NCBI GenBank assembly: GCA_965228855.1
Contig: CBDDIJ010000002.1
Coordinates: 928,001-992,000, forward strand
DNA length: 64,000 bases
Direction of reading: 5' to 3'
Source: Candidatus Obscuribacterales bacterium
GTDB lineage: Bacteria > Cyanobacteriota > Vampirovibrionia > Obscuribacterales > Obscuribacteraceae
Shown here: piece by piece, positions 53,646 through 61,391 of the stretch
Layout: each line of letters opens with the position of its first letter
Numbering within the stretch: position 1 is the stretch's first letter
Notes under the pieces: model-generated
The model's database searches: none
What the model was told of the DNA's origin: nothing
The model's input: the letters and a program-made list of their open reading frames with translations, nothing else
Made by a program: the position numbers and the translations under genes

Positions 53646-54935
53646 TTGAAACATAAACCGAAATACTGTTCATTTGCGATAGCGATTGGACTTGCCACAG
53701 CTTGTGCCGGTGCGGGCTATGCTGACTATCAGGACAATCGCTCCGAGTCTGCGAGGCTTTCATATCAGGCTGGCAATCTCTTGAAGAGTCAGGATTTTGC
53801 CGGCGCGGAGACGCTCTTGCGGCAAGCTGTTTCGCTTGATTCGTCCAACAAACCCGCGCAGTTCAATCTCGGATGGGTGCTCTACAAGCAAAACAAATAT
53901 CGCGACGCCGTGGATCCGCTCCGGCGTGCCGCTGAACTCGCGCCTGATGACGCCGGTGTGAAGTCGATGCTCGCTCACTGTTACAAGGAGACTGGTGATT
54001 ACAGAAATGCGACCAACCTTCTGGAAAGAGGCTTCTCCAGCGCTTCCAGTGCAAAGGATAAATCACAGATGTTGGAACTGATGGCGTTCTGTTATAGCAA
54101 GCTCAAGGATACGCGACGTACTGCCGATGCTTACAGGCAGCTAGTTGTGCTCAATCCGACCGTCGAGAAATACTTGTTTTATTTTGCTGACTCGTTGCAA
54201 AAAAATGGCAATCTGGCGGAAGCGCAAAAGGTTTACACGCTCTACCAGACCCGGTTTACGAGTGGACCCCATCGCGCGGAAGCTGTCCAGGCTGTAGAAA
54301 AATTGAAACATGAAAGCAAGCCGCCTCAGTGGTTGGGTCGGTGGCCGGCGATGCCTGTGAAAGTTTGCTTGCTCGATCCCGTAACGCCGGTCCGAGGTTA
54401 CCACCAGAATTATCGTGCCCTTGTGGGTCGGGCCGCGCAAACCTGGCAGGAACAGTCGGGCGGGCTAATCAAGTTCGTCTTCGTTGATAAGCCGGAAGCG
54501 GCTCAAATACTCATTCATTGGACGGATGACACGAAGTCGCTCAAGGAGGGTGGCAGTGGAAGCCAATCTGTCGGTTTGACTAATTTGAGAAATTTAAAAC
54601 CGGGTCAAATTTCAGCGGCTGAAATTTCACTGTTGACCATAGACAAAAACACAAACCAGCCGTTCCGGGACCTGGCGCTGGAATCGGTGGCGCTTCACGA
54701 ATTCGGGCATGCACTGGGTTTGCCCCATAGCTCGAGTCCAGCCGATGTGATGTTTCCGTGGGAGAACAACGAAGGAAATACGCACACCAGGCTGAGCGCA
54801 AGAGATCTCAGCTGGATAAAAACCTTGTATTCATTTGGAAACCCTGCTGGCGGGAAAACTGCAAATGAAGTAGACACCCGGTCCGCAGCGACTAAGAAGC
54901 CGGCGGTCATTGTGCGCGGAAAGTCAGCTCGTTGA
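53646..54935 (+). CDS. Secreted TPR + matrixin (M10) metalloprotease
   Basis: Signal peptide, TPR repeats, HEFGHALGLPH and Met-turn DVMFP. Confidence 0.9.
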   Translation: MKHKPKYCSFAIAIGLATACAGAGYADYQDNRSESARLSYQAGNLLKSQDFAGAETLLRQAVSLDSSNKPAQFNLGWVLYKQNKYRDAVDPLRRAAELAPDDAGVKSMLAHCYKETGDYRNATNLLERGFSSASSAKDKSQMLELMAFCYSKLKDTRRTADAYRQLVVLNPTVEKYLFYFADSLQKNGNLAEAQKVYTLYQTRFTSGPHRAEAVQAVEKLKHESKPPQWLGRWPAMPVKVCLLDPVTPVRGYHQNYRALVGRAAQTWQEQSGGLIKFVFVDKPEAAQILIHWTDDTKSLKEGGSGSQSVGLTNLRNLKPGQISAAEISLLTIDKNTNQPFRDLALESVALHEFGHALGLPHSSSPADVMFPWENNEGNTHTRLSARDLSWIKTLYSFGNPAGGKTANEVDTRSAATKKPAVIVRGKSAR

Positions 54936-56485: not shown

Positions 56486-58189
56486 ATGCAGCTTGTCGAG
56501 TGCGTGCCGAATTTCAGCGAAGGCCGCGACGAAAGAATTATCAACGCAATAGCAGATGCAATGCGGAAGGTTTCAGGAGTCAGTCTTCTGGACGTCGACC
56601 CGGGTGTGAGCACGAACAGAACGGTCATGACTCTGGTAGGTGGGCCGGAAGCAGTCGTAGAAGCTGCTTTTCAGGGCATTGCCTGCGCTGCCAGTTTAAT
56701 CGACATGCGCAAACACACCGGAGAACATCCTCGCATGGGCGCCACGGATGTTTGTCCTTTCGTTCCGGTTGCGGGTGTGACGATGGCTGATTGTGTGAAA
56801 CTTGCAGAAAAGCTTGGTGAGCGCGTCGGAAAAGAGTTGGGTATTCCGGTCTATTTGTACGGTGAAGCCGCCCGAAAAGAAGAGCGCAAGAGTCTCGCGG
56901 ACATTCGTAAGGGCGAGTACGAGGCGCTGCCAGAGAAGATGAACGATGCCGGGTTCAAACCGGATTTCGGTCCTGCTAGTTTTAACGCTGGCGCCGGCGC
57001 CACCGTAATTGGTGCGCGGCAGTTTTTAATCGCCTACAACGTCAACCTGAATACGAAATCGAAGAAGTTGGCAAACGAAATCGCGTTGACCATTCGAGAG
57101 GCGGGTCGTTCTAAGAGAAACGCCGAAGGCGCGATCGAACGTGATGCGGAAGGCAAAGCGGTAATGGTGGCAGGTACATTGAAATCGTGCCGTGCTGTTG
57201 GTTGGACTGTCGATGAGTACCGGCGAGCGCAAGTTTCAATCAATTTGATCGATCCGTCGGTGACATCATTACATCATGCTTTTGATGAGGTTGTGCGTGT
57301 GGCGGACGGGCTCGGGATTCGGGTCACCGGCAGCGAAATCGTAGGGCTTGTGCCGCTCGGTCCGATGCTGGAAGCTGGTCGCCATTATTTGAAAAAACAG
57401 AATCGCTGCACCGGTGTTTCAGAAGAGGAACTTTTAGAAATAGCGGTTCAGTCGCTGGGACTGGCTGAGTTGGCTCCTTTTGAGCCCAAAAAGAAAATTA
57501 TCGAATATACTGTGGCACCGCAGGCGGTGAATCTTCGTGACATGACGGTCTCGGCCTTCATCGACGAGTTGGCGTCCGAATCGGCTGCGCCAGGGGGCGG
57601 AAGCGTTGCTGCCCTGGCTGGTGCAACTGCTGCGGCATTGACTTCAATGGTCGCTTGTTTGACGTTCGACAAAAAAGGTTTCGAAGCGCAAAAGCCGGTG
57701 ATGAATGATTTGGCGGAACATGCGCAGAAGCTGAAGGCGGAGTTGGTTCGCGCGGTTGATGATGATAAAAATGCGTTCAATAGCATCATCGATGCCAGGC
57801 GCATGCCCAAAGGCAATTCCGAGGAAATCGCTCGCCGGGATCAAGCAATTCTCGATGCGAATAAACATGCCACGCTCGTTCCTCTGCGCGTGATGAAGGT
57901 CTCAGCCAGCACTTTTGACCTGATTGAGGCAGCGGTCGAGAAAGGAAATCCCAATTCCTTGAGCGATGCGGGCGTGGCTGGATTGATGGCGCTCGCGGCG
58001 ACGGAAGGGGCATACTACAACGTTCTCATTAACCTGGATGGCTTTGATAAAGCCGATAAGGGGCAGAGTGAATTCGTCAAGGCAACTGAGAAAGAGGCGA
58101 GCGACGTGATGGAAAAAGCGCGGCAGCGAGCGGAGAAAGTGCGCAAGGCTGTTTTACAGAGATTGTCTCCGCAGGTTTCTCTTGCGTAA
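56486..58189 (+). CDS. ftcD: Glutamate formimidoyltransferase / formiminotetrahydrofolate cyclodeaminase
   Basis: VECVPNFSEGR, HPRMGATDVCPF; C-terminal cyclodeaminase motifs APGGGSVAA and SDAGVA. Confidence 0.93.
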   Translation: MQLVECVPNFSEGRDERIINAIADAMRKVSGVSLLDVDPGVSTNRTVMTLVGGPEAVVEAAFQGIACAASLIDMRKHTGEHPRMGATDVCPFVPVAGVTMADCVKLAEKLGERVGKELGIPVYLYGEAARKEERKSLADIRKGEYEALPEKMNDAGFKPDFGPASFNAGAGATVIGARQFLIAYNVNLNTKSKKLANEIALTIREAGRSKRNAEGAIERDAEGKAVMVAGTLKSCRAVGWTVDEYRRAQVSINLIDPSVTSLHHAFDEVVRVADGLGIRVTGSEIVGLVPLGPMLEAGRHYLKKQNRCTGVSEEELLEIAVQSLGLAELAPFEPKKKIIEYTVAPQAVNLRDMTVSAFIDELASESAAPGGGSVAALAGATAAALTSMVACLTFDKKGFEAQKPVMNDLAEHAQKLKAELVRAVDDDKNAFNSIIDARRMPKGNSEEIARRDQAILDANKHATLVPLRVMKVSASTFDLIEAAVEKGNPNSLSDAGVAGLMALAATEGAYYNVLINLDGFDKADKGQSEFVKATEKEASDVMEKARQRAEKVRKAVLQRLSPQVSLA

Positions 58190-59345
58190 CTTCTCGCGTT
58201 TGAAAGAAAAAGTTAAGACGCATTTCGCGTCGAGCACCGCTTTGCTGTCGGTAAGTCTGGGCCTGGCGATCCTTTCTCCGTGCCTTGTTTCGTGTGTTTC
58301 ACAGGAGGCGACTTCGGAAACCAAAGCGATAAAAAAGAAGAAAAGAAAGAGAAGTAAACCGGAACATGAGGATATGCTGGCTCCTCCGAACATGACTCTG
58401 GGTGAGGCGACGCGCAAGTATATTCCGGCTTCTCGTTTCAACGAGGGCACGCCATTGACCGATGCTGATTATGTCAGAGCCGCGGAGGTTGCGATCCATC
58501 AAAGGGATGACGGCAGTTCGATGATGCTGGCTTCGGAAGCGATTCGGCTTAATCCAAAATCCGCTGCAGCGTATTATGTCCGAGGGCGAGCGCGGTATGG
58601 TGGTTTGGCGGATGGTGAGAAGTCCTCGATTGATGACTTGAAGCGTTCTGTTGAACTCGGTTTGGGAGGGCCGAGCACGGCTGGTGCATGGCATAGCCTT
58701 GCTCGGGCTTATGATGCCCAGAAAGACGTTCCACGCGCGATCGAGGCGATCGAAGAGGCGATAAGGCTTCGTCCGGAAGATCAAGCTGCGTACAGAACAA
58801 AGGCTGCCATTCTTACTGCTAACAACAGGAAACAAGAAGCAATCGGCGCTTACTCGATGGCTCTTAAACTGAAGCCGGAAGACGCGGAAATGTACTTCCA
58901 GCGCGGGCAGTTATTTGAGAACCTCAAGCAATTTGATGATGCGTTGAAGGACTATGAAGGAGCAATCGTTCATGGTCGAGAAGGGAATCAGATGCCTTAC
59001 AAGTTGATGGCTTTGAAGCGTGAAGCCTCGATCTATTCACAAGATGGGAAATTTCAGAAAGCCGCGGATGTCCTTTCCATCGCCATCTCCATGGACAAAT
59101 TCGACGAGGAATTGCATCGCTTGCGCGGTGAGGCTTATGAACGGTTGCACAAGTATGCAGAGGCGGTCGCCGATTATTCGAAGGCAATCGAGATGGCGCC
59201 GGACTTTTCGCAACACTCCTACGAGGCTCGCGCCCGCTGTTACGAGAAACTGGGAAAGGTCGATCTTGCTGCTGCAGATTTGAAAGAGTCGAAACGTCTG
59301 ATGGACGCACCGGCCGAAAAACCGCTATATGAGCTAAAGCATTAA
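58182..59345 (+). CDS. TPR protein (possible lipoprotein)
   Basis: Multiple TPR repeats; hydrophobic leader with LVSC. Confidence 0.82.
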   Translation: MRNFSRLKEKVKTHFASSTALLSVSLGLAILSPCLVSCVSQEATSETKAIKKKKRKRSKPEHEDMLAPPNMTLGEATRKYIPASRFNEGTPLTDADYVRAAEVAIHQRDDGSSMMLASEAIRLNPKSAAAYYVRGRARYGGLADGEKSSIDDLKRSVELGLGGPSTAGAWHSLARAYDAQKDVPRAIEAIEEAIRLRPEDQAAYRTKAAILTANNRKQEAIGAYSMALKLKPEDAEMYFQRGQLFENLKQFDDALKDYEGAIVHGREGNQMPYKLMALKREASIYSQDGKFQKAADVLSIAISMDKFDEELHRLRGEAYERLHKYAEAVADYSKAIEMAPDFSQHSYEARARCYEKLGKVDLAAADLKESKRLMDAPAEKPLYELKH

Positions 59346-59656
59346 GGCTGCCAGAAACGGCAAACTACTATAAGGAATCGTGTGGAGTGAGTTCCCGAAA
59401 CGTCATGGGGGAGATGCTTTCGCCCCCTGGGGGCTGATCGCGAGAGGTGTTTGTCTACGATACGTAGCCGGAATTTCGGGAAAGCGTCATAGCCACGTAG
59501 CCAAGTCGGGAAATTCGGAGCGTCACCTTGGTCGAGAGTGCTGCAAAAGCCGATGGCACAACGAGTTGTGGGCGTACGGAGATATGAAAGTATATAGTAG
59601 GAAGATTTGGCTACGCTACGTAGCCGGAATTTCGGGAAAGCGTTGTACGTTAGAGA

Positions 59657-59880
59657 TTGACAGCAGACCCAATCAATTGACACCAGGTCCTGCTGTCGGC
59701 AAGGCTATCCGAGGACGCGAGGATAGAGAAACGGAAGAAACCAGGAAAAAGCGTATGACCGCGAAGTCAGGCTATGAGGTTTGGACTTCCGTTTCTGTCT
59801 TGTCCTCTGAGGCTGAACACTATCAGATGCAAATCCTAGAACGATTTAGCATGCGTACAAGGCTCGCCCTGACAAGATTC
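59657..59880 (+). ncRNA. Predicted IS110 bridge RNA
   Basis: 5' hairpin; target loop with AAAGCGT (59748-59754) and GGCTATGA (59770-59777); donor loop with ACACTATC (59817-59824) and CGTACAAG (59854-59861). Each loop is closed by a stem and holds an internal hairpin. Ends are approximate. Confidence 0.8.
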
Positions 59881-59925
59881 TATCCGCGTCCTGTGTAGGT
59901 TGGCAAGTCTAAATGGAGGCGCATC

Positions 59926-60891
59926 GTGATATCACTTGGGATAGACATCTCTAAAGAGACTGTGGATTGCTATCTGCTCTCGGAACGAGGGCGGAAGTTG
60001 CACGCTGACAACTCTGACAGCGGATTTCGGCGAATTGAGAAGTGGCTGAATCAGCACACCGAAAGCGAAGTACAAATTTGCATGGAGGCCACTGGAAAGC
60101 TCTGGGAGCCACTCGCAGAATACTTCTGCGACAAAGGTTTTGCCGTCAGCGTCGTCAATCCTGTTCAGATCAAAAACTTTGGCAAAAGCCTGTTGAAGCG
60201 TTCAAAGACGGACGCAATTGATGCCGAGGTAATCGCACAGTTTTGCAAACTGATTCAACCGAAGACCTGGACGCCCCTCCCGGACGTGGTCCGGAAGATT
60301 CGCAACATTGAGCGTCACATTGATGCGCTCAAGACCGACCGAACCAGAACCGTGAATCGTACCGAGTCCGGTCGGCTCGACGAACCTGTGAGTATCTCGC
60401 TTCAGCGGCAAATCGAATTCATCAACAATGAGATTTTGCTGCTGGAACAGGCTCGAGACCTCTTGATCAAGTCCGAACCGCAATTTCAGAACGATCTCGC
60501 CTTACTGCAAACCATCCCTGGAGTCGGTTTGATCTCGGCACTCACGTTTCTCACGGAAATTTCCGGCTTGGATTCCTTCGAGTCGTTGAGAGAAGTCGAG
60601 AGCTACTGCGGCTTGACTCCGGAATTGCGCGAGTCTGGAACTTCTGTTCGAGGGCGTCCGAAGATGTCTAAGAAAGGCTGCAAGCGCCTCCGGAAAGTTT
60701 TCTACATGGCGTCTCTGAGCGCAGTTCGATCAAACCCTGCCATTCAAAAATTCGCGACAAAGTTGGCAGAGAAGTGCAAACCAAGGAAAGTCATCTTGTG
60801 CGCCGCCATGCGCAAGCTACTTCGCATCATGATGGCGATCTACAGGACAAAGACACCATTTAATCCCAATCATCTAAGCGTTCATTGTTGA
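59926..60891 (+). CDS. IS110 family transposase/recombinase
   Basis: DEDD residues in GIDISK, MEATG and KTDAIDA; TIPGVG; GLTP..RESGTS (catalytic Ser loop); AAMRKL. Confidence 0.96.
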   Translation: MISLGIDISKETVDCYLLSERGRKLHADNSDSGFRRIEKWLNQHTESEVQICMEATGKLWEPLAEYFCDKGFAVSVVNPVQIKNFGKSLLKRSKTDAIDAEVIAQFCKLIQPKTWTPLPDVVRKIRNIERHIDALKTDRTRTVNRTESGRLDEPVSISLQRQIEFINNEILLLEQARDLLIKSEPQFQNDLALLQTIPGVGLISALTFLTEISGLDSFESLREVESYCGLTPELRESGTSVRGRPKMSKKGCKRLRKVFYMASLSAVRSNPAIQKFATKLAEKCKPRKVILCAAMRKLLRIMMAIYRTKTPFNPNHLSVHC

Positions 60892-60908
60892 CAGCGAACA
60901 CACTATCT
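60888..60908 (+). promoter_or_regulatory. -35 half of the IS110 circle-junction promoter
   Basis: TTGACA (60888-60893). On circularisation it lies 17 bp from TACGTT (59646-59651). Confidence 0.75.
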
Positions 60909-61391
60909 CATAGCCACGTAGCCAAATCGGGAATTTCGGAGCGTTACCTTGGCCGAGAGTGCTGCAAAAGCTGATAGCACAACGATTTGTGGACGCGTGC
61001 GGATATGAAAGCATATAGTAGAGAGTTTTGTCTACGCTACGCTGCCGGAATTTTGAAAAAGCGTCATGCCTACGCCGCCAAATCGGGATTTAAAGGCCTG
61101 GGCTTTTGAGAGGAAACCCCGTAAAGGCTCATCTGGGCTTTGATTCTGGCGAAGAGGATATATGCTGCCGTATAGTAGGAAGAGTCGGGAGAAGTAACGG
61201 GGGGCTCCGAAGAGCCTCCCGCTACCCGTTCCTGCATCAGCGGTTGGTGAGGATGCAGATGATGATGATGAGCAGAATGGTGACGAGGTCCATGCTCGTG
61301 TTCCTTCTCTACGCAGGTGTCGGCATCCGGCCGGCTTCGGTGAGCTAACGCGATGGCTAGCTCTGCCACCGAGAGTGGTGGCGGCGACGTC

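Follow-up and report, generated by a model that had tools for sequence, protein, structure and literature searches.

An IS110 element in the window, a stretch of 64,000 nucleotides of bacterial DNA, appears to be a recently active bridge recombinase of the IS621 type that joins a GT target to a CT donor, two sites with a single core base in common. On sequence comparisons, we give this reading a probability of about 0.88, the recent activity and the unequal-core mechanism being taken jointly. The earlier note had treated this element, here named IS-a (Table 1), as an ordinary IS621 copy, and it missed the unequal cores, a retargeted paralog and changes in the guides. The targeting of REP repeats by IS110 elements through a bridge RNA is already established, and IS-a works like IS621; repeat targeting and the retargeting of a paralog are of a known kind, and what is new is a natural element joining sites with one shared core base. 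In the following, G000 denotes the genome of the window and G007 a sister genome.

Table 1. Features of element IS-a and the adjoining repeats (positions in the window), and copies of the paralog IS-b (positions in G000).
Feature	Position	Strand	Remarks
IS110 element IS-a, 1265 bp, shared T counted once (right end)	59644..60908	+	copies in G000 and G007
Intact copy of the 54-bp dyad repeat containing the empty target site 59481-59494, core GT	59451..59504	.	
Interrupted repeat, left part, ending in the left target and the target core GT (59642-59643)	59607..59643	.	empty orthologous allele in G007 (L117)
Non-coding left end, 282 bp, source of the predicted bridge RNA	59644..59925	+	
Putative -10 hexamer; its 17-nt spacing to the right-end -35 exists in the circular form only	59646..59651	+	pattern on the computed junction
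Target-binding loop, closing stem 59728-59737/59786-59795	59728..59795	+	
Left target guide, 9 nt, GT at its end like the target core	59746..59754	+	
Right target guide GGCTATGA from 59770, pairing 7 right-target bases and the donor core CT	59770..59778	+	
Handshake guide of the target loop, GT; once strands are exchanged it can pair donor positions 7 and 6	59779..59780	+	putative role, after PMC11208158
Left donor guide ACACTATC, same letters as 60900-60907	59817..59824	+	
Right donor guide CGTACAAG, complement of the core CT and the first 6 bases of the element	59854..59861	+	
Donor-loop handshake guide GC, complement of target positions 7 and 6	59862..59863	+	
IS110 recombinase, 321 aa	59926..60891	+	PF01548 and PF02371; IS621 residue alignment
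TTGACA, putative -35 of the circle-junction promoter	60888..60893	+	
Left donor and donor core CT, right end of the element	60900..60908	+	
Interrupted repeat, right part (right target)	60909..60925	.	
Third repeat copy of the local array, intact	61028..61080	.	
IS-b copies	G000 C2:774694-775949, 858555-859810, 1120764-1122019		

The IS621 bridge-RNA architecture proposed earlier is borne out by both Pfam domains, by IS621 as the nearest solved relative, by a two-loop RNA with compensatory changes and by guides that covary with the flanks. In the recombinase, PF01548 and PF02371 both score above cut-off, and the closest proteins of solved structure are IS621 (E 4.6e-50) and then ISCro4 (E 8.3e-47). 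Residues D7, E54, D96, D99 and S237 are invariant across 25 aligned proteins and align with the acidic residues of IS621, for which we assume the DEDD numbering, and with its S241. The latter residue is named as such in PMC11208158. With 282 bp on the left and 17 bp on the right, the ends have the long-left/short-right form of the IS110 group and not that of IS1111. The element is intact and interrupts the repeat exactly, as previously stated; its insertion leaves no target duplication, and the empty alleles rejoin precisely. Target duplication is not characteristic of the IS110 family (PMC11187229).

Four copies of IS-a are present in G000 at 99.8-100% identity, from which we conclude that insertion was recent and repeated; one copy was found in G007, and the presence of a 99%-identical copy in a Ca. 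Obscuribacterales genome places the lineage. The claim of same-site targeting withstood the comparison of copies, as 4/4 copies of G000 and the copy of G007 occupy one repeat position, with none in unrelated sequence; one copy matches its left guide at only 6/9. On the computed circle junction the pattern TTGACA-17-TACGTT arises, and a promoter scan of the linear sequence gave 2 sites vs 1.5 expected. The junction itself was not found in the contigs of 4 runs, which report presence only and from which rare forms are dropped, and a search for its 14-base pattern gave no match in 5 genomes of relatives; the hits in viral contigs were at chance level (of 80 loci, 79 were scored, the best agreeing at 26/66 flanking bases). 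No relatives of the element were found in metagenome contigs by a single-protein scan or in viral contigs by an alignment scan.

In the left end of the element a bridge RNA with readable guides had been described, and all of its named motifs lie at the places given for them: the intact target site, the closing stem of the target loop, the left target guide within 59745-59754, GGCTATGA, ACACTATC, CGTACAAG and a second stem (59798-59804/59871-59877). The guides can indeed be read, the longest exact guide-DNA matches being 7, 8, 8 and 8 nt; their sum of 31 exceeds that of all 5000 dinucleotide shuffles of the left end (mean 16.9, maximum 29), and the 7-nt match taken singly is equalled in 6% of shuffles. 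Two claims held in part: the left target guide is in place, but matches the flank in the window at 7/9 positions only and not in full, and the second stem is present, but as an invariant outer extension of 7 pairs, 0 of which show a change on both sides. In the alignment consensus the arm 59798-59804 can pair either downstream (59871-59877) or upstream with an extension of the target-loop stem; both pairings are conserved, and two conformers are possible. Over the RNA scaffold, 14/37 pairs are changed on both sides, a value reached in 0/500 shuffles and also above the slid controls, the structure having been predicted from the same 10-sequence alignment that was used to score the compensatory pairs. 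An Rfam search of the left end returned no meaningful family score, its single match being weak and unrelated (E 0.89). Both loops of IS-a carry handshake guides able to pair positions 6-7 of the opposite substrate, and across relatives the handshake of the donor loop can form at 18 and 16 of 23, a count that includes G-T pairs and lacks a shuffled control. A long ORF across the left end (59380-59898) was set aside, because RNA pairing is conserved there in relatives.

The junctions of IS-a read GT on the left and CT on the right in 5/5 copies (four in G000 and one in G007). Empty alleles read GT in three cases, namely the sites of the window copy and of copy C5:1462675, both seen in G007, and the filled site of G007, which is empty in G000 at C3:2154358. 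No empty allele of copy C2:198470 was found in G007, and C5:860952 was excluded from the count, since the empty GT repeat of G007 at that place may be a neighbouring copy. Among 396 oriented intact repeats, the core dinucleotide at the target position is GT in 258, GG in 137, GA in one and CT in none. From the GT empty alleles, the GT/CT junctions and the 0/396 count for CT, it follows that target and donor share only the T. The identical target and donor dinucleotide of the canonical IS621 model is therefore absent from IS-a (GT vs CT), which makes this element a variant and not a plain copy of that model. Its right target guide continues with a G, which pairs the donor C and not the target G.

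For comparison with relatives, 102 loci with a recombinase match were reduced to 26 that could be parsed (recognisable scaffold and left junction), and the removal of two near-copies of IS-a gave a set of 24 elements; five other duplicates and one locus without a left junction had no part in it. Target base 8 is A in 15 of these, C in eight and G in one; the left target guide equals it in 24/24, and the right target guide base opposite this position is G in 24/24, matching the donor. The right junction is CT in all 18 elements with a right end, and the two cores differ in 11/18. Agreement between guides and flanks amounts to 158/192 on the left (24 elements; permuted mean 73, maximum 112) and 62/90 on the right (18 elements with a right end; permuted mean 37, maximum 57), kinship inflating both tests and the left-guide register having been moved one base by hand for L032 and L042. 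Right flanks match poorly in L042 and L061 (0/5) and in L004 and L044 (2/5). L006 is a clean TT/CT case with guide matches of 9/9 and 5/5, and L046, the one AT-core element with an observed empty site, is flanked by tandem units that are empty, the visible ones reading AT in 5/5; its right flank indicates insertion into a tandem array of about 21-22-bp units, which is its guide target. Further, 28 of 56 additional, more distant loci could be resolved, giving 22 CT, one TT (L006) and five with a disagreement between guide and flank at base 8, the latter being probably misparsed. L024 (G003:C17) has a bridge-RNA-like scaffold with no recombinase match in the locus and is possibly a non-autonomous or truncated element.

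In a tree of 30 proteins, built without the fragment L022 and the duplicate L002, the AT elements are united with IS-a and IS-b at a support of 99/96, to the exclusion of the other CT elements and of L006. The three core labels need two changes on this tree, whose midpoint root does not give their order. Since the 15 AT-core elements fall mostly in one clade, they are not independent, and the data hold about three switches (AT, GT and TT). The residue at the position of A61 in IS621 is Gly in 15/15 AT-core elements and Ala or Ser in 9/9 others, an association that we regard as a lead only, as it may represent one event; in IS621, A61 is linked to a bias toward C or G at this base (base 8; PMC11208158, section 8).

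A mechanism modelled on IS621 would accommodate these features. The element would be excised as a circle whose junction would form a promoter for the two-loop bridge RNA; the target loop would pick one position in the host 54-bp repeat and the donor loop would bind the circle junction, target and donor sharing core base 9 (T) only, unlike in the canonical model. The top strands of IS621 are cut between 9 and 10 and the bottom strands between 9* and 10* (PMC11208158), the latter lying, in our reading of the numbering, opposite top positions 6 and 5. If the top strands of IS-a were likewise cut after base 9, as in the IS621 structures, and swapped, base 8 would go with its own left arm, and so the G would stay at the left junction and the C at the right. 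Base 8 would then enlarge a patch of mismatches, at positions 6-7, that is left to repair in IS621 as well, and would need no homology; recombination products carrying mismatches beside the core are described in PMC13626964. The left target guide would be reprogrammed at base 8 and the right target guide would keep its G, which would mispair the target before exchange and pair the incoming donor C after it, with the right donor guide doing the reverse; one mispair before exchange would thus be traded for one after it, and no base pair would be lost overall. In IS621, the right guides pair the incoming core once strands have been exchanged (PMC11208158, sections 11-13), and the same paper describes the protein contact to the guide G and the cut geometry (sections 8 and 12). 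Through point changes in its target guides, the element would spread among repeat variants.

Other origins of the unequal cores have to be weighed against this. An ordinary matched CT core, with the GT of the left junction as a later product of mutation or of conversion from other repeats, would agree with the published rule of matching cores, and repeat families do homogenise; it is nevertheless hardly credible in view of the three empty alleles reading GT, the absence of CT from that position in 396 repeat sites, and a left target guide that itself encodes GT, as it encodes AT or TT in the relatives with those junctions. Less easily dismissed, though still unlikely in our judgement, is a tolerated leakage, in which the enzyme would prefer CT and be inefficient on GT or AT, as would every enzyme of the IS621 type, with nothing special encoded. 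Partial precedents favour it, since 15/117 off-target sites of IS621 were without CT, non-CT cores being less efficient (PMC11208160), and base 8 is termed less conserved (PMC11208158, section 8); IS-a, moreover, keeps Ala at the A61 position. However, guides are programmed for a non-CT base in 16/24 elements of a group about 42-100% identical to the window protein, and leakage would not fix a guide base; the near-identity of the copies, with its implication of recent and repeated insertion, also speaks against a poorly working reaction. A bolder reading, which we hold tentatively at somewhat less than even odds, is a branch of bridge recombinases with a one-base core, in which any target base 8 could be combined with a fixed CT donor provided that the left guide of the target loop tracks the target and its right guide the donor, and in which the change from Ala to Gly at the A61 position would adapt the enzyme to AT. 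Leakage would be compatible with the mechanism favoured above if tolerance were general and the guide arrangement were what matters. Against that mechanism stands the observation that orthogonal CT and GT cores abolished cross-reaction of IS621 (10.64898/2026.04.29.721476, section 8); each engineered RNA there matched its own core, so that a cross reaction loses both pairs, which may reconcile that result with IS-a.

With IS621 of Escherichia coli (PMC11208160, PMC11208158), IS-a shares the domain order, the active-site residues, the long left end with a two-loop RNA, the handshake bases and a single insertion position within an extragenic palindromic repeat, and the donors are near-identical (ACAGTAT.CT.TGTAT in IS621, 10.64898/2026.08.31.748434; ACACTAT.CT.TGTAC in IS-a). 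It differs in the single base shared by the GT target and the CT donor, in a right target guide that by nature spans 7 target bases, in the repeat family used and in a host of the Melainabacteria lineage. ISCro4/IS622 follows the same guide logic, whereas the human-genome sites chosen for it were paired only if their cores, CT or GT, were identical (10.1101/2025.05.14.653916). ISPpu10 and ISPpu9 of Pseudomonas putida are also IS110 elements inserting in REP repeats, two in one host, ISPpu10 having a CT core (10.64898/2026.03.19.712850); here, paralogs with the same donor use two positions of one repeat. No description of natural unequal target and donor cores was found in the openly accessible text of the bridge-recombinase literature, that of PMC13604230 and 10.64898/2026.08.14.744561 included, and a word search of the accessible text of 10.1101/2025.10.25.684509 did not return the word 'core'. 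The published boundary pipeline (PMC11208160) took cores to be repeated sequences and gave preference to CT. The bridge-RNA designer of that paper raises a CoreMismatchError if cores differ, the orthogonality of CT and GT is used against cross-talk (10.64898/2026.04.29.721476), and natural enzymes with relaxed core limits are called for in PMC13396178.

Bridge recombinases are becoming tools for genome editing, with the shared core as their main sequence limit, and IS-a and its relatives offer a concrete guide rule that is cheap to test, together with candidate enzymes. If the one-base-core reading is true, the matching-core rule would be overturned and the sites open to a CT donor would widen about fourfold (T at 24% of positions, CT at 5.8%). 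The natural elements also caution that the orthogonality of cores may hinge on how the guides are designed.

The genome further shows RNA-guided retargeting under way, with two paralogs dividing one repeat and with guides that change faster than the rest of the element. The paralog IS-b, a second IS110 of G000 (1256 bp, three identical copies, 52% protein identity to IS-a), ends in the same donor sequence as IS-a and differs little from it in the RNA scaffold, but its target guides are different. Its sites lie at the foot of the same 54-bp repeat in 3/3 cases, with matching guides and a CT core, about 31 bp from the position of IS-a; the cores of IS-b are equal and those of IS-a unequal. Compared with IS-a, the right donor guide of IS-b has two extra bases and its match is broken after 5 bases, though three identical copies exist. 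A metagenomic relative, L037, carries a further right-guide variant with a 5/5 match to its repeat variant, and the right flank of L038 is not the repeat. With regard to IS-a itself, copy C2:198470 differs from the window copy at two positions, one of them in the left guide, and the G007 copy at ten, two of them in the left guide, in both cases improving the match to the occupied site; an IS-a variant in the contigs of run X8 has two right-guide changes among ten listed. Altogether, 4/20 distinct substitutions fall in the 14 guide bases (P 6e-5, or 9e-4 if the count is restricted to loosely constrained sites), and 9/12 coding changes are synonymous. Empty repeats of G000 matching at least 12/14 guide bases number 12 for the window guide and 19, 22 and 23 for the guide variants, and the simplest reading of this drift would be selection for fresh sites.

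A templated process copying the guide changes from the occupied target, in place of mutation and selection, could also be read from the shift of the left guide toward its own flank in C2:198470 and in the G007 copy and from the share of substitutions within the guide bases. We consider it very improbable, given that the matches are still imperfect (8/9), that three other copies have one guide at three different sites, and that with each change more of the empty repeats become well matched, which selection explains; we know of no mechanism for such copying. Whether pairing by the guides is sufficient for site choice is a separate matter, as the structure of the repeat or a bound protein might also be needed, for which the target stem-loop of ISPpu10 provides a precedent (10.64898/2026.03.19.712850). 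Of the sites that match at least 11/14 guide bases, 51 lie in repeats, 105 elsewhere in non-ORF DNA and 359 within ORFs, and the placement of 4/4 copies in repeats has a P of about 0.014 against the non-ORF pool. We nonetheless doubt such a requirement: when the long right guide is counted, 16-base pairing puts 3/4 used sites at 14-15, a score class made up of seven repeat sites and no other non-ORF site, so that pairing alone suffices for those three, and arm-to-arm complementarity in the repeat is barely above column frequencies.

The dispersed host repeat noted previously does exist, but its unit had been misread, the family repeat being a 54-bp dyad and 157 bp the local tandem period. A search with nhmmer located 221 loci in G000, of which 10 are centred in ORFs of at least 150 aa; grouped in 162 clusters, 17 lie in crude gene calls and 145 outside, and on these calls it is plausible that the repeats act as a 'safe harbour' for IS-a. 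They are enriched between convergent genes (45/145 vs 434/2891 gaps), and the exact degenerate pattern occurs 89 times in G000, 66 times in G007 and once in G006, the remaining 101 of the 104 genomes of the family having no match. The repeat thus resembles REP/RAYT families in being short, palindromic, mostly intergenic, enriched between convergent genes and restricted to a narrow lineage, and differs from them in the absence of PF01797 from G000 and G007, in little covariation of the arms and in a modular layout of four boxes. Y1_Tnp (PF01797) was not found in G000 (95% complete) or G007 (91%); it is present in 3/8 genomes of the genus, and all three are devoid of the repeat pattern. Complementarity of the arms is near column expectation at most of the 27 pairs, with a modest excess at a few. 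Given the lack of a Y1 transposase and the little compensatory change in the arms, we call the repeat REP-like and not a shown REP/RAYT family. An origin from RAYT or from integron attC, compared through what we take to be the attC motifs, found no support, and a literature search on this repeat returned nothing.

Within the repeat (13 loci at 3515-61080 of the window, and across G000), four short boxes with few variants each assort almost freely between the arms, and in this respect a protein-binding element with several sites seems a closer analogy than a hairpin. The neighbours of the array are ordinary, comprising a protein with TPR and a C-terminal M10 peptidase domain (53646-54935) and a TPR protein directly upstream of the array (58182-59345). 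As for genomic distribution, 180/221 repeats lie within G000 C2:1-1,250,000, where GC falls from 59% to 53% vs about 50% elsewhere, and which may be a distinct replicon or region. Finally, the octamer CTACTATA, found for example on the minus strand at 59594-59601 of the window, has 212 of its 292 genomic occurrences at most 150 bp from a repeat, such neighbourhoods making up 0.9% of the genome; we read it as a second conserved part of a larger element.
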